From: Escherichia phage RB14
Direction: 5' to 3' (one strand)
Sequence record: NC_012638.1
Length of the DNA stretch: 64,000 bases
Position 1 is the first letter of the stretch. Each line of letters begins with the position of its first letter. Position numbers and translations under genes: made by a program. Below, one piece after another: positions 35,136-60,361 of the stretch. The notes under the pieces are model-generated. The model was given only the letters and a program-made list of their open reading frames with translations, made no database searches and was not told the DNA's origin.

Positions 35136-35560
35136 TGCTTCTGATCCCTGAAACTCATGAATTAGTTCTCGAGAATGTCGAAGCACTTATTCCTGAAGCA
35201 CAGGGTCGCTTTGACAAATTGTCTTCTGCTTTAAATAAAGACGATATAAATACAATTGTCGAGAATATGCTTGATGATGAAACTAATTTAGCAGTTGCAT
35301 TAGCTTCTATTAATGAAAACATGCCGTTAAATGAATTCATTGTTAAGCACGTTTCAGCTCGTGGTGAAATTACACGTACTAAAGATCGCAAAACACGCGA
35401 ACGTAATGCATTTCAAACCACTGGGCTGTCTAAAGCAAAACGTAGACAAATTGCTCGCAAAGCTACCAAAACGAAGATTGCCAATCCAGCAGGTCAATCT
35501 CGTGCTCAGCGTAAGCGTAAAAAAGCTCTTAAACGCCGTAAAGCATTAGGATTAAGCTAA
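35135..35560 (+). CDS. 68: prohead core protein gp68
   Basis: 141 aa; synteny between 67 and 21. Confidence 0.8.
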
Positions 35561-36198
35561 TGAATGAACCCCAATTACTAATTGAAACTTGGGGTCAACC
35601 TGGCGAAATTATTGATGGCGTACCAATGCTTGAATCCCATGATGGAAAAGACTTAGGTTTAAAACCGGGTTTATACATCGAAGGAATATTCATGCAAGCA
35701 GAAGTCGTCAATAGAAATAAACGTCTTTATCCAAAACGTATATTAGAAAAAGCGGTAAAAGACTATATTAATGAGCAAGTTTTAACTAAACAAGCTCTCG
35801 GAGAATTAAATCATCCTCCACGCGCTAATGTTGACCCGATGCAAGCCGCTATCATTATAGAAGATATGTGGTGGAAAGGAAATGACGTATACGGACGAGC
35901 TCGTGTTATTGAAGGTGACCATGGTCCTGGAGATAAATTAGCAGCTAATATTCGTGCCGGATGGATTCCAGGAGTTTCTTCTCGTGGATTAGGTTCATTG
36001 ACTGACACAAATAAAGGTTATCGTATCGTAAACGAAGGATTCAAATTAACTGTAGGTGTTGATGCAGTATGGGGTCCAAGTGCTCCAGATGCATGGGTAA
36101 CTCCTAAGGAAATTACCGAATCACAGACGGCGGAAGCCGATACAAGTGCCGATGACGCCTATATGGCTCTCGCAGAGGCCATGAAAAAAGCGTTATAA
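35560..36198 (+). CDS. 21: prohead core protease gp21
   Basis: 212 aa; synteny and length. Confidence 0.9.
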   Translation: MNEPQLLIETWGQPGEIIDGVPMLESHDGKDLGLKPGLYIEGIFMQAEVVNRNKRLYPKRILEKAVKDYINEQVLTKQALGELNHPPRANVDPMQAAIIIEDMWWKGNDVYGRARVIEGDHGPGDKLAANIRAGWIPGVSSRGLGSLTDTNKGYRIVNEGFKLTVGVDAVWGPSAPDAWVTPKEITESQTAEADTSADDAYMALAEAMKKAL

Positions 36199-53161: not shown

Positions 53162-54126
53162 TGTATTCTTTAGAGGAATTTAATAATCAAGCAATAAACG
53201 CAGATTTCCAACGTAATAATATGTTTAGCTGCGTTTTTGCAACAACTCCATCAACTAAAAGCTCTTCGTTGATAAGTTCAATTAGCAACTTTTCTTATAA
53301 TAACTTGGGCCTAAATTCAGATTGGCTAGGATTAACTCAAGGTGATATTAATCAGGGAATTACCACGCTAATTACAGCTGGCACACAAAAACTGATAAGA
53401 AAATCAGGGGTTAGTAAATATCTTATTGGTGCCATGAGTCAACGTACAGTTCAAAGTTTATTAGGCTCATTTACAGTTGGTACATATTTAATTGACTTCT
53501 TTAACATGGCATATAACTCATCTGGATTGATGATATATTCTGTAAAAATGCCAGAGAATAGATTATCCTATGAAACTGACTGGAACTATAATTCTCCTAA
53601 TATTCGTATAACTGGAAGAGAATTAGACCCTTTGGTTATTTCATTTAGAATGGATTCAGAAGCATGTAACTATCGTGCAATGCAAGACTGGGTTAACGCT
53701 GTTCAAGACCCAGTAACTGGATTACGTGCTTTGCCACAAGATGTCGAGGCAGATATTCAGGTTAATCTTCATTCTCGTAATGGATTGCCTCATACTGCGG
53801 TGATGTTCACTGGATGCATTCCAATATCAGTGAGCGCTCCTGAGTTATCATATGATGGAGATAACCAAATAACTACATTTGACGTTACTTTTGCGTATAG
53901 AGTGATGCAGGCTGGAGCAGTTGATAGGCAAGCTGCGCTTGAATGGCTTGAATCTGCTGCTATAAATGGTATTCAAAGCGTTCTCGGAAATAGTGGAGGT
54001 GTTACTGGACTACCTAATTCGCTTTCACGACTTAGTAGATTAGGAGGAACTGCAGGAAGCATTTCAAACATTAATACTATGACAGGGATTGTCAATTCGC
54101 AGAGTAAAATATTAGGAGCAATATAA
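53161..54126 (+). CDS. 54: baseplate tail tube initiator gp54
   Basis: 321 aa; synteny and length. Confidence 0.9.
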   Translation: MYSLEEFNNQAINADFQRNNMFSCVFATTPSTKSSSLISSISNFSYNNLGLNSDWLGLTQGDINQGITTLITAGTQKLIRKSGVSKYLIGAMSQRTVQSLLGSFTVGTYLIDFFNMAYNSSGLMIYSVKMPENRLSYETDWNYNSPNIRITGRELDPLVISFRMDSEACNYRAMQDWVNAVQDPVTGLRALPQDVEADIQVNLHSRNGLPHTAVMFTGCIPISVSAPELSYDGDNQITTFDVTFAYRVMQAGAVDRQAALEWLESAAINGIQSVLGNSGGVTGLPNSLSRLSRLGGTAGSISNINTMTGIVNSQSKILGAI

Positions 54127-54130
54127 CAAT

Positions 54131-54156
54131 GGGGACCTTTCGGTCCCCATATTTTT
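54131..54156 (+). terminator. rho-independent terminator after gene 54
   Basis: GGGGACC-TTTC-GGTCCCC hairpin followed by ATATTTTTATTT. Confidence 0.7.
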
Positions 54157-54445
54157 ATTTACGGAATGAAATAAAAGCAGCAACTGAAGCAACTAAACTG
54201 TCTTCAATATAAACTTCAATTTTTACCGGAGCTTCTGACTCAAATTTACCTGTTACTACACCTTGAAAAATACTTTCAGTCTGTTCTGGCTTTGAAAAAT
54301 TTTCAGAAGGAAAAATTCCGAACTTTTTATCTGTTCCAAAAATTTTGATAAATTCATCGTAAACTGCTTCATTAAAAGCATTATCAGCAGGAATAACGCC
54401 TTCAACGACGAGTTCTTGACCTAAAAAGCGCAAAGAAGATTTCAT
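54155..54445 (-). CDS. hypothetical protein downstream of alt
   Basis: 96 aa ORF with ATG. Confidence 0.6.
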   Translation of the reverse strand: MKSSLRFLGQELVVEGVIPADNAFNEAVYDEFIKIFGTDKKFGIFPSENFSKPEQTESIFQGVVTGKFESEAPVKIEVYIEDSLVASVAAFISFRK

Positions 54446-54505
54446 TTTGTGTTCCTCATGTTATGTCAGTAAGACTACTATAACACAACATGAGGGACTT
54501 GTAAA

Positions 54506-56563
54506 CTACATTTTGAACTTTTTAGACATTCCGTTGATGTTAACCAAAGAAGCTAAGATTTGAGAAACTTCGTTTTCCTCTTCTTTTGATTCTTCTACAA
54601 GGAATTGATTAAATCCAGCCATTGGACGAACTTCACCAGTTTCCATTAGATGGTCGCCATCATATACTGATTCTTCTAATTGTTCAGAAGGAGGAACGAT
54701 TGTACCTTCGATTAGATACTTGTTATAAGCAGTTTCTTTCATAAAGTAAGTACTTACTTTATTAATCTTCAGTAAAATTCCACGTGGTAGAATAACTTCA
54801 GCTTCTGATGGAAATCCTGATAAATGACCCGGAACGATAACTTTAACTCGTTCAGCTCCTTTAATTACCATACCCACGCTAGTTTCAGCATCTTCATTAG
54901 CATATGTAGAATGACTACCCATATGCATCAAATCTTCTGCATCAACAGAACCTTCTCCTTCGCCAGAAAATACTGCACCGGAATCATCTAGAGCCATATA
55001 GTTTTTACCATGCTCACCGAAGATATTTGGTTTAAGTGATGTCGATACGAAGTTCTTGAAATAGAACATTTTATTTTCAATGTTATGACGCAAAGTTTTA
55101 AAAGTAACTTCTTGTCCACGGTAAAGTGTAGTTCCTGGAGGAAGAACTGAACCTTTAGCAAACGCAGAATCCATAGTCTCGATGTGCTTAATAGCGCGCT
55201 CCATGTATTCTTCACGTGTAGAATCAGGTTTACCTAAAAGGAATGAGTTCATTTCAACATACGAATCTGCGCAATAATCTTCAATTACATCAGACTCAGC
55301 CTGAGTCAATCCTTTTGGAGTTACTTCAGTGCTTGCATATTCATACGCCTGAGCAGCGGATTCATCAATTAATTTATAAATTCCATTCATTACAAATTGA
55401 ATAATAGCTGTCTTTTCATCTGGTGTAGCTTTAGAACCTTTAACTAAATCATTGATAATTTTCTTAATAACATCAAAACTATTAGAAATATTAATATCAG
55501 CAAGATCGCTTAAAATTTTATCAGTTTTGTAATTAAAGAAGTCTTTATTCTTTAAATATTCCTGGGAACCTTGATATGATGTATCGCTCTGCAACTTGAT
55601 AGATGGATCGCGTAAACGTGCATGGGCTAATGCAATATGATTTCGGAAACTTTCTAGTTCATAATCGTTAGATTTAAAACGAGAAGCACTTCTCATACCG
55701 CCGATAGCTCCTTTGCCGAAGTTTGAACCAATCTGAATAACGCCAGAGTTCATTGGTCCTTCTGCTTTATATACCGGAACTTTAGATTCAAACTCTTGAT
55801 ATTTCTTAGCAGCGAAGCTATCACCCTGAAGTGAAGCATCAACAGTAGAATATTGAGCTTGTGCTGCTAATCGACGACTAATTTTAGTTTTCTGAATAAC
55901 AGCTTGATCCGTACGCTTATCATTTTCTAAAGCAATAGAAGCAGCAACTGCGACAGCTTTAGGAACAGCATTACCTGTTTTAACGTCTACATAAACATCA
56001 CCAACCTTTGATTCAACTTTTGTGAATAACTCAGTTGAAATAGGAGGTACACCTGGAATGTCTTCTAAATTGGCATTTTTACGGTAAACCATAATATATG
56101 CATATTTCTTATCATAGTCCCAGATTTCCTTTAAAAGAACATATCGACCTGCTCCTTTAGTACGTACTAAACGGTCAGCAATAACTTGCATTTGACGAGC
56201 AGCGCCATTTGTTTTACTTTTTAGTACGCGGAATAGGCATGCATCAATTTTATACTGTTTCATTGTTTGAAGAGCAGTATCAAAAACCGCATTAATGACA
56301 CCAATTGGATTTCCACCCAAGTTTTTAAGCTTAACTAACGATAATTTCTCATTAACACCTATCATTACGATATGCATCATTTTGTCGCCTGGCTTAACGT
56401 TTTTATTCGTATCACCGCCAGAGGTGTATGTACAAAATCGAAATCCAGGAAGAACGCTTTCTTCACCGGCTTGAATAGCAAAAATTTGAGGTATTTTATG
56501 CTTAGGATTTAAGTTAACAACCGGCGCCGAAGCGCCGTCAAATAATTCTGTAATAAGTTCCAT
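54506..56563 (-). CDS. alt: Alt-family ADP-ribosyltransferase, paralog A
   Basis: 685 aa; N-terminus MELITELFD...; C-terminal ART triad in order: Arg (TLYRGQ), STS (FVSTSL), E-x-E (SEAEVILPRG). Confidence 0.8.
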   Translation of the reverse strand: MELITELFDGASAPVVNLNPKHKIPQIFAIQAGEESVLPGFRFCTYTSGGDTNKNVKPGDKMMHIVMIGVNEKLSLVKLKNLGGNPIGVINAVFDTALQTMKQYKIDACLFRVLKSKTNGAARQMQVIADRLVRTKGAGRYVLLKEIWDYDKKYAYIMVYRKNANLEDIPGVPPISTELFTKVESKVGDVYVDVKTGNAVPKAVAVAASIALENDKRTDQAVIQKTKISRRLAAQAQYSTVDASLQGDSFAAKKYQEFESKVPVYKAEGPMNSGVIQIGSNFGKGAIGGMRSASRFKSNDYELESFRNHIALAHARLRDPSIKLQSDTSYQGSQEYLKNKDFFNYKTDKILSDLADINISNSFDVIKKIINDLVKGSKATPDEKTAIIQFVMNGIYKLIDESAAQAYEYASTEVTPKGLTQAESDVIEDYCADSYVEMNSFLLGKPDSTREEYMERAIKHIETMDSAFAKGSVLPPGTTLYRGQEVTFKTLRHNIENKMFYFKNFVSTSLKPNIFGEHGKNYMALDDSGAVFSGEGEGSVDAEDLMHMGSHSTYANEDAETSVGMVIKGAERVKVIVPGHLSGFPSEAEVILPRGILLKINKVSTYFMKETAYNKYLIEGTIVPPSEQLEESVYDGDHLMETGEVRPMAGFNQFLVEESKEEENEVSQILASLVNINGMSKKFKM

Positions 56564-56566
56564 GAT

Positions 56567-58663
56567 TTATCCTTGAACGAACTTGTAAGGCATGTTTGTA
56601 ATATCTATGCAAGACGCAATAATTCCAAGAGATGATTCTACTTTCTGTTTAACGTTTGATGAAACAAATGATGCAAAGTCAACTCTGTCTTCTATTTCAG
56701 TATCACCTGTCATTGCAACTACTTCACCGGTTTCCATTAAATGGTCTCCGTCATAGATTACCGATTCGGTGAGCTCTTCCGTGGTCATAACTTCAGCTTG
56801 AATGAGTTTTGTATTATTAGATGTTGTTCCGTCATTATTAGAAGCATCAGTTATTTTATTAACTTTGACCATCAATCCACGCGGTAGAATAACTTCAGCT
56901 TCTGTTGCTATTCCGAGACTTCCTGGATATACAACATTAACTTTATGAGCTCCATCAATTGCCCATCCTATTTGAACTTTAACGTATTCAGGATTTTCTT
57001 TATACGCTCTTATTTCGTTTGGATTAATAGTTATTCCTTCTTCATTTTTATCAACTGTTAATTCATTGCGAGCTTCTGGTTCTAAAAGACCAATACCAGC
57101 ATGTGTGATTCCAAAACGTCCAAAAATGATAGGAGTTAAAGAAGTAGATACAAAATTTCTGAAGTAGAACACTTTATTTTTAACTAACGCTTCATATATA
57201 GGAGCAGTCATACTTTGAGCACGATAAACTGTAATGCCTTCTGGTATACGGTCACCATTTTCAAAAGCTGAATCTAAGTTATTTATAGCAGATTCAATTT
57301 CTTTTTCACTCATTACATCATATCGTTCTGGATTGTAACGACCTAAAAGAAGATTATTGATGTCAGTATATCCTGAACCGCAATATTCTCTAATGCCACG
57401 CTTTTGTGATGGAGTATATTTAGAACCATCGCGGGCAATAGTAATATCAATCATTGGACCAGCACCAATTCCAGAAAAACTGTAAATCATTCGTTTGAGG
57501 AATTTAGTTTTTGCTGCGTTCCAGGAATTTTTAGTTATTTCTTCCCAGACTTCATCTGGTTGTCCTTTACGATTTTTATTATGATTAGCAAGCCATTTAT
57601 CTTTATAATCTTCAAAGAATTGATTTACAGCTGCTGCGTATTTCTCTAAACATTTTATTGAAGTAGTTGGTTCATTTTTAATTGCATTAAAAATTACTTC
57701 TTTAATTTTTTCTGAAACTTCACCGACTTGACTCATTGGAAAGAATTTATAATCATAGTGAAGTTCATCTGCCGTTCCTTCAGCAATAATTTTTGCTGCC
57801 TTTGTTTTAGAAGCTAATGAATTAATTCCAATTTTCATTTCTTCTGCTTCGGGAATTAAAGGTGCAGTAGCTGGTTTATTAAAATTAGCTGCTGTAGATT
57901 CATACTTCTGGAATAATTCACTTTCAAATCTAGAAGATTCCAATGACTGACTTTGTGCAATTGCTCTACGGGAAATTTTAACTTTAACGATTACGGCTTG
58001 GTCAGAACGTTTATCATTTTCTTGTGCAATAGATGCAGCAATTGCCTCATTTTTGGTTACTTGAGCTCCAGTATCTTTATTGATATAAACATCACCGACC
58101 TTCGATTCAACTTTAGTAAAGAGCTCGGTGCTAATTTCTGGAACTCCTGGAATGTCTTCTAGTGATACATTTTTACGATGTATAAGAATATATGCATACT
58201 TTTTATCGTAATCCCAGAGTTCCTTAAGAAGGACGTATCTGCCACCTGAACGACTGCGGATGAGTCTATCAGCAATAAGTTGAATTTGTCGAGCTTGACC
58301 GGCGGTTTTAGACTTAAGAATACGAAGCATGCAGGCATCAATTTTATATTGACGCATTGTTTGCATTGCAACAGTAAAAACTGAATTGATATAATTAATC
58401 GGGCTTGGACCAAGACCTTTTAATTTAGCAATTGAACCTTTAGCAGTTAATGTAAAAGGAACAATATGCATCATTTTATCGCCCATCTTTAAATCACGAT
58501 TAGTATCACCTCCAGATGTATAGGTACATAAACGAAAGCCTGGTTGTTCAATTGCATCATCAACATGAACTGAAAAAATTTGTGGTATTTTCTTCTTTGG
58601 ATTTAAGTTTGTAATCGGAAGAGTAGTATCTTCGTCAAATAATTCTGTAATGAGTTCCATCAT
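56567..58663 (-). CDS. Alt-family ADP-ribosyltransferase, paralog B
   Basis: 698 aa; N-terminal about 190 aa closely similar to paralog A; C-terminal YRAQ / FVSTSL / TEAEVILPRG; central region diverged. Confidence 0.8.
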   Translation of the reverse strand: MMELITELFDEDTTLPITNLNPKKKIPQIFSVHVDDAIEQPGFRLCTYTSGGDTNRDLKMGDKMMHIVPFTLTAKGSIAKLKGLGPSPINYINSVFTVAMQTMRQYKIDACMLRILKSKTAGQARQIQLIADRLIRSRSGGRYVLLKELWDYDKKYAYILIHRKNVSLEDIPGVPEISTELFTKVESKVGDVYINKDTGAQVTKNEAIAASIAQENDKRSDQAVIVKVKISRRAIAQSQSLESSRFESELFQKYESTAANFNKPATAPLIPEAEEMKIGINSLASKTKAAKIIAEGTADELHYDYKFFPMSQVGEVSEKIKEVIFNAIKNEPTTSIKCLEKYAAAVNQFFEDYKDKWLANHNKNRKGQPDEVWEEITKNSWNAAKTKFLKRMIYSFSGIGAGPMIDITIARDGSKYTPSQKRGIREYCGSGYTDINNLLLGRYNPERYDVMSEKEIESAINNLDSAFENGDRIPEGITVYRAQSMTAPIYEALVKNKVFYFRNFVSTSLTPIIFGRFGITHAGIGLLEPEARNELTVDKNEEGITINPNEIRAYKENPEYVKVQIGWAIDGAHKVNVVYPGSLGIATEAEVILPRGLMVKVNKITDASNNDGTTSNNTKLIQAEVMTTEELTESVIYDGDHLMETGEVVAMTGDTEIEDRVDFASFVSSNVKQKVESSLGIIASCIDITNMPYKFVQG

Positions 58664-58683
58664 ATCCTCTCTAGTGTTTATTC

Positions 58684-58691
58684 TATTTATA
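58684..58691 (-). promoter_or_regulatory. late promoter TATAAATA upstream of alt pair
   Basis: Exact consensus on minus strand about 21 nt upstream of ATG 58663. Confidence 0.65.
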
Positions 58692-58696
58692 AAATT

Positions 58697-58714
58697 AAAG
58701 GCCCGAAGGCCTTT
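58697..58714 (-). terminator. stem-loop/terminator AAAGGCCCGAAGGCCTTT
   Basis: Palindromic hairpin overlapping stop of 58713..58901, U-rich on minus strand side. Confidence 0.55.
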
Positions 58715-58901
58715 AATAATCTATTGGTAATAGAGTACGATATATTTCAAACTTTGGACCTTTTTCATAAGCATCAAAAGTTTCTGTGAATTTATTATAA
58801 GCATATGCATCTATAAATTCAATCATGATTTGCGATACAGAAGTAGAAACATCTCCACCTTCTTTTTGAGCCACGACAATTGTTTCTAAGTAAGCTTTCA
58901 T
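58713..58901 (-). CDS. hypothetical small protein
   Basis: 62 aa ORF; ATGA overlap with ligase stop. Confidence 0.5.
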   Translation of the reverse strand: MKAYLETIVVAQKEGGDVSTSVSQIMIEFIDAYAYNKFTETFDAYEKGPKFEIYRTLLPIDY

Positions 58902-60361
58902 AAACCAGTTACCTCATGAAAATCGCCAAATACATCTTCGAACGTATTAGCTTTAGTTTTATCTTCACGTAAACGAATCGCAATTGGAAGAAATAATTTA
59001 ACGTAATCGGTGCGGCCATCAGATTTTAACCAACCGTTGCATTCGCACTCTAGAATTTTTCCAATATAATAATTTTGGTTTTCCATAATGCGAGTACGGT
59101 CAAGTTCATGCGATTTTATACCAGCTTTATCTTTTAAGCCTGAACCAGCATTTACTTTAATTTTTCCACACTCTGACTCAAGAATAAATCCACCCGCTTT
59201 AGTAGGGTCTTTACGGTGAGGATAAATTCCTACAATTTTTAAATCAACATCAATTACTTCTTTAAATTTATAAAGATTTTTTGAACGAGCATTTTCCCAT
59301 AATCCATCGATATTTTTGAGAATAATACCTTCAAGACCTTGGTCAATATACTTTTTGTAAATTACCTTAGCTTCATCTAGGTTATTTACTACTTGGTTTT
59401 CAATTAAAATTACTTTATCATAGCCTGATGTCATTTGTTCTAGTTTAGAAAAACGTACATCATATTTTAAACGAAACGCTGGAAGACCATATATTTCTAC
59501 TAATGGAACATAGTCCCAGACCTGAAACTTCATGCATTGTGCTTCTTTTTCAGAAATGGTTCCCTTTAAAGATTTATTAGCGATTCCATTAGAAGTAGTA
59601 CGTGATTCAGCTACTTCGGCGAATTCTTTAGCTTTACTAATTTCAGGATAAGCATCAAAAAGAAAATCTAGGCCTTCTGGTTCCTTTTCAACTTGCTCAT
59701 GGTATACCAATTCGCCATCAATTAACACACCTTCTGGATGAATCTGGCGAGCTTCTGCAGTCATTTTGATTAACTCTTCCTTGAGAAGATCTAATCCTAG
59801 ATATTCATTACCAGCTCGTGATAAAAGACGAACATCATCTAATTCATCACCTCTGACTTCAGCAAAGCACCGAGCTCCATCAGCTTTTAACTGCGCAAAA
59901 GCTGGAAACTTAATATTCTTACTAATGCCTTTTTCATCATAAGAACTTGCCAGCATTTGAGGTTGTTCAGGAATTAAACCTGGCCAAACTTTATTTGCAA
60001 TAGATACTGAAGCACCGCATTCAAGGTCTCGCATCATCACCCGACGCAAAACTTCAACATCATCTTTTTTACCGTCAGCAATATATCCAGTTAATTCCTC
60101 AATTGCCGCATTTCCGGTCAATTTCCGAGTAGCTAACGTGAATTCAATGAAGTCAAGCATATCGGTAAGAGTCAACATTCCAAAACTCTGGGTAGCAATA
60201 CCAGGTTTAGGCCATTTCTTGATATAATACTGTAACCCACGAGAATAAGTCAGACGATATACTCGTTTAAGCAATTCATTATCTTTATTCTTTTCAAGAA
60301 TTGCTTGCTTCTGCTTAGTTGAACCAATAGATGCTATTTCGTTCAGAATTTTAAGAATCAT
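58898..60361 (-). CDS. 30: ATP-dependent DNA ligase (gene 30)
   Basis: 487 aa; adenylation motif KADGAR; sequence recognisable as T4 DNA ligase. Confidence 0.93.
   Translation of the reverse strand: MILKILNEIASIGSTKQKQAILEKNKDNELLKRVYRLTYSRGLQYYIKKWPKPGIATQSFGMLTLTDMLDFIEFTLATRKLTGNAAIEELTGYIADGKKDDVEVLRRVMMRDLECGASVSIANKVWPGLIPEQPQMLASSYDEKGISKNIKFPAFAQLKADGARCFAEVRGDELDDVRLLSRAGNEYLGLDLLKEELIKMTAEARQIHPEGVLIDGELVYHEQVEKEPEGLDFLFDAYPEISKAKEFAEVAESRTTSNGIANKSLKGTISEKEAQCMKFQVWDYVPLVEIYGLPAFRLKYDVRFSKLEQMTSGYDKVILIENQVVNNLDEAKVIYKKYIDQGLEGIILKNIDGLWENARSKNLYKFKEVIDVDLKIVGIYPHRKDPTKAGGFILESECGKIKVNAGSGLKDKAGIKSHELDRTRIMENQNYYIGKILECECNGWLKSDGRTDYVKLFLPIAIRLREDKTKANTFEDVFGDFHEVTGL

Follow-up and report, generated by a model that had tools for sequence, protein, structure and literature searches.

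The window, a stretch of 64,000 nucleotides from Escherichia phage RB14 (NC_012638.1), carries two adjacent minus-strand genes of the Alt family, altA and altB (alt.-2/Alt2), and the reading that we favor, and consider probable, is that both encode functional mono-ADP-ribosyltransferases, specific for arginine and belonging to the R-S-E clade of Alt and VIP2, and that both enzymes are packaged and injected and act on different host targets. T4 Alt is a packaged and injected NAD:arginine ADP-ribosyltransferase that modifies RNA polymerase alpha and counters MazF and Mokosh I. Experimental knowledge comes almost entirely from T4, a one-copy phage. In the majority of T-even phages, two different ADP-ribosyltransferases are injected or are likely to be. 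The window is that of an RB51/RB68-like Tequatrovirus (T2/T6/RB51-type), and the tandem pair is already known. The second gene has been annotated as alt.-2 (RB51), Alt2 (BASEL phages Bas43 and Bas45), altb (SP18), “alt.-1” (T2 record) and a second “Alt-like RNA polymerase ADP-ribosyltransferase” (RefSeq T6), and duplications of alt into paralogues in other Straboviridae were described by Nolan et al. (2006), which answers the question of whether the duplication had been catalogued, left open by the earlier note. The gene pair itself is a matter of routine annotation.

Gene structure and predicted transcription of the alt locus

The features of the locus are collected in Table 1. The coordinates proposed earlier for two adjacent minus-strand reading frames of 685 and 698 aa were confirmed, with one correction of length. 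The 698-aa frame begins MMELITELFD, and because GAGG precedes the second ATG by 5 nt and T4 and RB51 have alt annotated from that codon, altA is assigned 697 aa. The resulting protein is 100% identical to RB68 Alt.

Table 1. Features of the alt locus and of the prohead protease gene in the window.
Feature	Position	Strand	Details
altA (Alt orthologue)	56567-58660	minus	697 aa, from second ATG
altA protein, N-terminal parts			N-propeptide 1-6 (MELITE|L); N-domain 7-238; helical/variable center 239-415
altA protein, C-terminal parts			ART domain 416-625 (R480, S505-T-S507, E587-A-E589); C-propeptide after LTE632|S
altB (= alt.-2/Alt2)	54506-56563	minus	685 aa
altB protein, N-terminal parts			N-propeptide 1-6 (MELITE|L); N-domain 7-238; all-helical center 239-420
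altB protein, C-terminal parts			ART domain 421-622 (R482, S507-T-S509, E587-A-E589); predicted C-propeptide after LEE631|S
altB segment for S632-V645 (SVYDGDHLMETGEV)	54629..54670	minus	conserved block right after predicted site LEE631|S
Terminator-like hairpin AAAGGCC-TTCG-GGCCTTT	58697..58714	minus	after alt.1 and gene 30, just before late promoter
T4-type late promoter motif TATAAATA	58684..58691	minus	23 nt upstream of altA start codon
altA-altB junction	56564..56575	minus	AAGGA RBS overlaps altA stop codon (AAGGATAAatcATG); 3-nt spacer
Sigma-70/T4-early-type promoter (G)TTTACA-17-TATAGT with TG	54477..54505	minus	in front of alt.-3
alt.-3 (DUF5498, 96 aa)	54155..54445	minus	downstream neighbor of altB
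Bidirectional terminator-like hairpin	54129..54150	.	closes alt operon against convergent gene 54
gp21 prohead protease (Peptidase_S77)	35560..36198	plus	expected to cut both Alt proteins

Over their full lengths the two proteins are 42% identical (BLASTP, E = 3e-160), and the duplication is visible in the DNA as direct repeats at a spacing of 2094-2097 nt with 70-80% identity. The N-termini had been described as very similar over 190 aa; the similarity (~67% identity) was found to reach residue ~238. The centers (~240-420) had been called essentially unrelated, and indeed they are only 17-18% identical and profile-profile comparison of the central regions found no homology (hhalign probability 0.6%). 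The divergence is not limited to the center, as the ART domains are 35% identical and fall into two old clades; a YDGDHLMETGEV block near the C-terminus is kept in both proteins. In the architecture that we propose, each protein would comprise a 6-residue N-propeptide, an N-domain of ~230 residues, an effector cassette made up of the helical region and the ART domain, and a C-propeptide of ~55-65 residues, with a lineage-specific N-domain that both paralogues share and a cassette that differs between them.

The late motif and the gene 30-alt-gene 54 synteny were confirmed for the locus. As the earlier note had suggested, a single late promoter appears to serve both genes: there is one upstream motif, the genes are 3 nt apart, and no terminator-like site was found in the gap or junction between them. 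From the promoter, the RBS and the lack of an intervening terminator, we infer that altA and altB are co-transcribed; one late mRNA would start from TATAAATA upstream of altA, and altB would be translated from its own RBS, a junction layout that is the same in T6 and IME281. The motif also precedes the first alt gene in T2, T4, T6, phiD1 and SP18, its counterpart in IME281 being CATAAATA, and the hairpin before it is kept in T2, T4, T6, phiD1, IME281 and SP18; a conserved terminator upstream of alt was remarked on previously (Nolan et al., 2006). A further copy of TATAAATA inside altA (57280-57287) was considered as an altB promoter and judged probably coincidental, because it is formed by A-I-N-N codons and occurs only in the 697-aa allele, being missing in T4 and IME281. 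Downstream, alt.-3, which is known through CmdTAC escape mutants, probably lies on the same late transcript and also has its own early-type promoter, which overlaps an inverted repeat (54451-54498). A search of region 53900-59100 against Rfam gave only a chance-level match.

Catalytic domains and predicted head-protease processing

By profile and catalytic motifs, both proteins belong to the Alt family of ADP-ribosyltransferases, with enzymatic activity predicted. PF03496 matches altA with 129.9 bits and altB with 71.2 bits (curated cut-off 23.4), PHROG 802 spans altA 1-696 (E = 6e-273) and altB 1-685 (E = 1e-255), and PF26846 (Tevenvirinae_ADPRT) is a precomputed match for close homologues; NCBIfam gave no model match. 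The claim that both paralogues retain an intact Arg/STS/E-x-E triad held on alignment, where every catalytic residue, in the arginine-specific form, is invariant and in aligned positions across 17 homologues. In an AlphaFold model, made for altB alone (pLDDT 76), both predicted propeptides are disordered and the ART core resembles the toxins Vis, C3 (C3bot), CDTa, iota and VIP2 (Foldseek E = 5e-8 to 1e-4). These bacterial R-S-E toxins share the catalytic fold and motifs with the phage proteins, but sequence identity is only 13-21%, and in a sequence search of the PDB altA had no more than weak CdtA/iota matches and altB had none. The toxins have delivery domains of their own, whereas the phage Alt proteins have a phage-specific N-domain and propeptides removed by protease. 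T4 ModA and ModB share an ART clade with Alt (PMC5512222) but, unlike Alt, are small, early and unpackaged, and have neither N-domain nor propeptides. For the central region of altB (residues 236-425), a search of 1.8 billion representative proteins gave zero matches, and the sole Pfam match at E <= 10, to DUF6842, was below threshold.

T4 Alt is cleaved at ITE-6 and LTE-619 (PMC5694885), and each head packages about 40 copies of it (PMC9026906). Corresponding gp21-type sites, at which cleavage is predicted, are present in altA (ITE6 and LTE632) and altB (ITE6 and LEE631); the altB site LEE631|S aligns with the mapped LTE-619, and across the 17 homologues the glutamates E6 and E631 show no variation and S632 almost none. 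The presence in each protein of both cleavage sites known from T4 Alt makes packaging and injection of the pair probable, and for altB the common N-domain points the same way. The L/I-x-E motifs are short, and other constraints could explain their conservation. In the scheme that we favor, the N-terminal part would take both proteins into the prohead core, trimming by gp21 at I-T-E6|L and L-x-E|S would yield mature proteins of about 70 and 69 kDa, and both would be injected with the DNA to ADP-ribosylate arginines on differing sets of host proteins.

Alternatively, Alt2 might be produced late but stay unpackaged and act in the producing cell, or it might be packaged in a structural or scaffolding rather than enzymatic role. 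A literature search for Alt2 virion proteomics, biochemistry or function found nothing specific, including on packaging, and the N-domain has no fold assignment, both of which would fit such a role. Yet altB is conserved with altA in both gp21 sites, in the N-propeptide and throughout the N-domain, its catalytic residues are invariant, the ART domain evolves at a dN/dS of 0.02-0.07, and Alt homologues are present in the virions of other Tevenvirinae. We therefore regard a non-packaged or structural Alt2 as distinctly improbable in comparison with a packaged enzyme.

Conservation, selection and loss of altB

altA is the positional orthologue of T4 Alt (gpAlt, 682 aa), lying between alt.1/gene 30 and alt.-3/gene 54, and it resembles T4 Alt in its late promoter, ITE-6 and LTE sites and R-S-ExE motifs. 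Identity is 99% over the N-terminal 246 aa and ~95% over the last ~100 aa but falls in the effector cassette (residues ~247-600) to only ~45% overall; in the ART domain it is 64%, and there E-A-E in altA replaces E-M-E of T4 Alt. The altA ART domain is closer to that of Dhakavirus IME281 (95%) than to that of T4. With ART identities to T4 of 64% (altA) and 35% (altB), neither paralogue carries the same effector cassette as T4 Alt. An allele census found the altA-type allele in about 315 records and the T4-type in about 212.

The alt.-2/Alt2 proteins of RB51, Bas43, Bas45, T2 and T6 are 96-99.6% identical to altB, equal in position and length and without structural differences. Intact and deleted altB loci were counted with a 70-nt junction probe: altB is intact in about 400 phage records, T2 and T6 included, and reduced to a frameshifted and deleted remnant in about 90, T4 among them. 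The remnant arose by a 1,699-bp deletion between 9-bp CTAAAAAGT repeats at altB nt 340 and 2039, and in T4, where the gene is dead, a 1-nt frameshift is present as well. The T4 ORFs alt.-1 and alt.-2 together correspond to the opening ~117 codons of altB, whose residues 1-56 and 62-117 are matched by PHROGs 23015 and 15247, respectively. The pair is described and is the majority state in Tequatrovirus, but it is not found in all T4-like genomes. A few phages, such as Yersinia phage PST, have instead a single altA-N::altB hybrid. Since about 90 records, including T4, lack altB and PST-type phages lack the altA effector, neither effector cassette is essential.

These remnants, together with truncated forms in the database (P0006, P0008 and P0010), raise the question of whether altB is a decaying duplicate, a pseudogene in the making as in T4. 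However, altB is a stop-free ORF of 685 aa in the window, T2, T6, RB51, phiD1 and ECML-123-2, all motifs are present, and dN/dS is about 0.04 (0.03-0.06 over 15 pairs) and low in every domain. altB is under strong purifying selection, and decay is extremely unlikely; for the window, the intact ORF and this dN/dS contradict a pseudogene.

Domain modularity and possible targets of Alt2

Phylogenies of the two ends of the proteins are discordant. The N-domain tree groups by genome, with altA and altB of the window joined to T4 Alt (100% bootstrap), while the ART-domain tree places A with A and B with B across genera (100% bootstrap each), the altB ART lying in a clade separate from T4 Alt (100% bootstrap). 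The two ART lineages have been kept distinct across at least three genera. The pairs of SP18 (alta/altb), IME281 and 44RR (ORF186-188) match the window in locus and two-ART-lineage content, but differ in their genus-specific N-domains, in the reversed order of A-type and B-type ART genes in SP18 and in the three copies of 44RR. This pattern suggests a lineage-specific delivery domain combined with exchangeable effector cassettes: the A and B cassettes would be old and exchanged between genera, and the N-domains would be held alike inside each genome by recombination or gene conversion. N-domains alike within genomes and cassettes shared across genera make a concrete, testable model.

The same data bear on whether the two enzymes are redundant copies that act chiefly on one set of targets (RNA polymerase alpha Arg265 and others), duplicated for dose or robustness. 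Both have the arginine-type E-x-E, the N-domain and the propeptides in common, and loss of either effector occurs in nature, as redundancy would allow. Against this stand the low identity of the ART domains, the unrelated centers, and the fact that Alt alleles are already known to differ in function: the ability to evade Mokosh type I is regained with T4 Alt and not with that of Bas37 (bioRxiv 10.1101/2025.11.20.689424). Because the distinct ART lineages persist, each under strong purifying selection, separate functions are favored, and we consider redundancy unlikely, if slightly less so than an unpackaged or structural Alt2. The different target specificities proposed for the two paralogues are plausible. 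As T4 Alt has been reported to defeat Mokosh I in an allele-specific manner, Alt2 and the alternative Alt alleles are candidate determinants of host range and anti-defense in therapeutic T4-like phages.

More tentatively, and with somewhat less than even confidence, we propose that the Alt family resembles polymorphic toxins, with a lineage-specific head-delivery N-domain and swappable ART cassettes. Alt2 would then be another effector delivered by injection and aimed at a separate host target, which might be a defense system. On this reading, the deletion of altB in the model phage T4 would explain why Alt2 escaped notice. The N-domain fold also occurs, at low sequence identity, in large uncharacterized proteins of other myoviruses, some of which bear zeta-toxin, deaminase or ParB/Srx domains; if the comparison with polymorphic toxins is correct, these occurrences would extend the idea of a delivery module beyond ADP-ribosyltransferases.

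Tandem alt genes and their expression signals

ORF positions, 42% identity between the whole proteins (BLASTP, E = 3e-160) and scores above the Pfam ADPrib_exo_Tox threshold for both confirmed the claim of an earlier note that altA (the upstream Alt orthologue) and altB (the second gene), which are head-to-tail minus-strand ORFs, are tandem Alt-family ADP-ribosyltransferase (ART) paralogues. In addition, repeats at 2094-2097 nt spacing preserve a DNA-level trace of the duplication. The catalytic Arg, S-T-S and E-A-E, described in that note as intact (Arg / STS / E-x-E), are present in both proteins and invariant across 17 aligned homologues. Identity is 67% over the N-terminal ~238 residues (N-domain), 17-18% over ~240-420, 35% in the ART domain and 46% in the C-terminal tail. 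Profile-profile comparison of the central regions of A-type and B-type cassettes (two effector lineages, each a helical centre plus ART domain, named after altA and altB) found no homology (hhalign probability 0.6%), so calling the centres essentially unrelated was fair; placing the divergence there, however, understated that of the catalytic domains.

Read from the first ATG (58663), the upstream ORF begins MMELITELFD. As GAGG lies 5 nt 5' of the second ATG, which is also the start annotated in T4 and RB51, we place the altA start there. Only 3 nt separate the two genes, and an AAGGA ribosome-binding site overlaps the altA stop codon. The proposal of one late promoter for both genes is supported by the TATAAATA motif 5' of altA and by a coding strand free of terminator-like sites from this promoter to the altB end. 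In contrast to this tight coupling, Aeromonas phage 44RR2.8t has a terminator-like hairpin (GGGCC-TCC-GGGCCC) between the last two of its three tandem Alt-like genes. A further perfect TATAAATA inside altA is kept in the 697-aa allele (RB51, T2, T6, phiD1) and missing in T4, ECML-123-2 and IME281; it is probably a coincidence, and could provide extra late altB transcription.

Features of the alt region and of related loci
Feature	Position	Strand	Remarks
Bidirectional hairpin	54129-54150		First terminator-like site beyond altB, past alt.-3
alt.-3 (DUF5498)	54155-54445	minus	Own early-type promoter
16-nt inverted repeat	54451-54498		Spans alt.-3 promoter -10 element and ribosome-binding site
alt.-3 promoter	54477-54505		GTTTACA-17-TATAGT
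altB	54506-56563	minus	685 aa
altB residues 1-240	55844-56563
altA	56567-58660	minus	697 aa, from second ATG (58660)
Internal TATAAATA	57280-57287	minus	Codons for A-I-N-N
Late-promoter motif TATAAATA	58691-58684	minus	Directly after GGCC-TTCG-GGCC hairpin
alt.1	58713-58901	minus	62 aa; Pfam 'Phage_blade' (PF24647)
T4 Alt	L002:2501-4549
T4 altB remnant	L002:4553-4975
IME281_A	L004:913-2997
SP18 alta/altb	L005:1611-5555
44RR2.8t Alt-like genes	L006:558-5426		319, 639, 642 aa
Hybrid, PST	L016:2501-4561
Other hybrids	L014:4001-6055; L015:3501-5561; L013:4001-6061

The earlier note left open whether this duplication was catalogued in T-even genomes. It is, and the pair is widespread: the second gene is named alt.-2 in RB51, 'alt.-1' in T2, a second 'Alt-like RNA polymerase ADP-ribosyltransferase' in the T6 RefSeq and 'ADP-ribosyltransferase Alt2' in BASEL phages Bas43 and Bas45; paralogous duplications (T4 alt.-1/alt.-2, RB49ORF183c, 44RR ORF187c/188c) were listed in 2006 (Nolan et al., PMC1524935); and tandem copies likewise occur in Dhakavirus IME281, Gaprivervirus SP18 (alta/altb) and 44RR, the last with three instead of two. 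The 4.85-kb alt locus shares 99.2% identity with phages RB68, RB51 and Ac3, and most of it is present in 367 phage records.

Effector cassettes and a proposed delivery domain

Neighbour-joining domain trees with bootstraps gave different groupings. The N-domain tree united altA, T4 Alt and altB (100%), whereas the ART tree paired altA with IME281_A and altB with IME281_B (100% each), and placed the first SP18 gene in the B-type clade (92%) and the second in the A-type clade (86%), an order reversed relative to Tequatrovirus and Dhakavirus. Moreover, altA is a mosaic, 99% (N end) and ~95% (C end) identical to T4 Alt, with an effector cassette nearer that of IME281. The window-type altA allele was found in about 315 records and the T4 type in about 212.

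Domain identities between Alt proteins
Pair	N-domain	ART
altA vs altB (window)	67%	35%
IME281 A vs B	67%	36%
44RR 187 vs 186	56%	37%
Positional orthologues, other genera	42-46%
altA vs IME281_A	46%	95%
altA vs T4 Alt	99%	64%
altB vs IME281_B	46%	56%

The simplest reading of these sequences is that two old effector lineages may have been swapped between genera on a phage-tracking delivery domain homogenised between tandem copies.

Constraint, loss and hybrid genes

At least 80% identity to altB was found in about 401 phage records. Across six phages altB contained no stops or indels, and its pairwise dN/dS was 0.03-0.06 overall (N-domain 0.00-0.07, centre 0.00-0.11, ART 0.00-0.07), a constraint at least equal to that of altA (0.04-0.08 in 9/10 pairs), which ruled out a decaying copy.

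T4 retains no more than the initial ~345 nt of altB. The remnant has a 1-nt frameshift within a run of As, and 1,699 bp are deleted, with the junction inside a 9-bp direct repeat, CTAAAAAGT, found at altB nt 340 and 2039. T4 alt.-1 and alt.-2 are pieces of this dead gene, their PHROGs matching altB residues 1-56 and 62-117, and a 70-nt junction-spanning probe found the deletion in 90 records. A third state, one hybrid gene with an altA-like N-domain followed by altB, occurs in Yersinia phage PST, ECML-134, SCS4 and three metagenomic contigs. Crossovers at differing places (about residues 45, 195 and 225) look like unequal recombination between similar N-domain sequences of tandem copies, and the metagenomic cases could conceivably be assembly collapse. 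Hybrids by recombination indicate that the exchange needed for cassette swapping does occur and, together with the T4-type remnants, that either effector can be lost. In Shigella phage sb4 (PQ666542.1), both alt genes and gp48 are split into several short ORFs, more likely by sequencing or assembly frameshifts than by real decay.

Predicted processing and function, and neighbouring genes

T4 Alt belongs to the head core, with about 40 copies (PMC9026906), and is cleaved by the prohead protease gp21 at ITE-6 and LTE-619 (PMC5694885). Predicted counterpart sites are ITE6 and LTE632 in altA and ITE6 and LEE631 in altB, giving predicted mature sizes of 70.1 and 69.1 kDa; E6, E631 and the following YDGD are invariant in the Alt family, and S632 nearly so. 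The window encodes gp21, gp22 and gp20. An Alt homologue was detected in Morganella Tevenvirinae phage virions; a literature search for Alt2 in virions found no report.

The altB AlphaFold model (pLDDT 76, pTM 0.65) comprises an alpha/beta N-domain (15-215), an all-helical segment (250-470) and an ART beta-core (480-622) matching the Vis, C3, CDTa, iota and VIP2 toxins, with disordered ends (1-10, 629-685) that fall on the predicted propeptides. Fold matches to the N-domain (residues 1-240) in BFVD (Foldseek E = 1e-9 to 1e-4; 10-16% sequence identity) were large proteins of uncharacterised function from Ackermannviridae-like, Vibrio, Aeromonas and Agrobacterium jumbo phages, some of which bear zeta-toxin, deaminase or ParB/Srx annotations.

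In R-S-E transferases the E-x-E motif confers arginine specificity, and T4 Alt targets Arg265 of RNA polymerase alpha; the motif predicts arginine specificity for altA and altB. T4 Alt is reported to be required for evading Mokosh type I, with Alt of Bas37, a two-copy relative, unable to substitute for it (2025 preprint, 10.1101/2025.11.20.689424), which indicates that Alt effector cassettes differ in function. Overall, the earlier note's observation is confirmed and its interpretation partly supported. A literature search for Alt2, ADP-ribosyltransferase and phage found no paper; the remaining value lies in Alt2 function and the pattern of delivery domain and effector cassette.

Among the neighbouring genes, C-terminal extensions of T4 alt.-3 allow escape from CmdTAC defence (PMC11618068). 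The T6 RefSeq label of the alt.1 orthologue, 'siderophore-interacting protein', looks like an annotation error, and PP526941.1 labels altA 'thymidylate synthase'.
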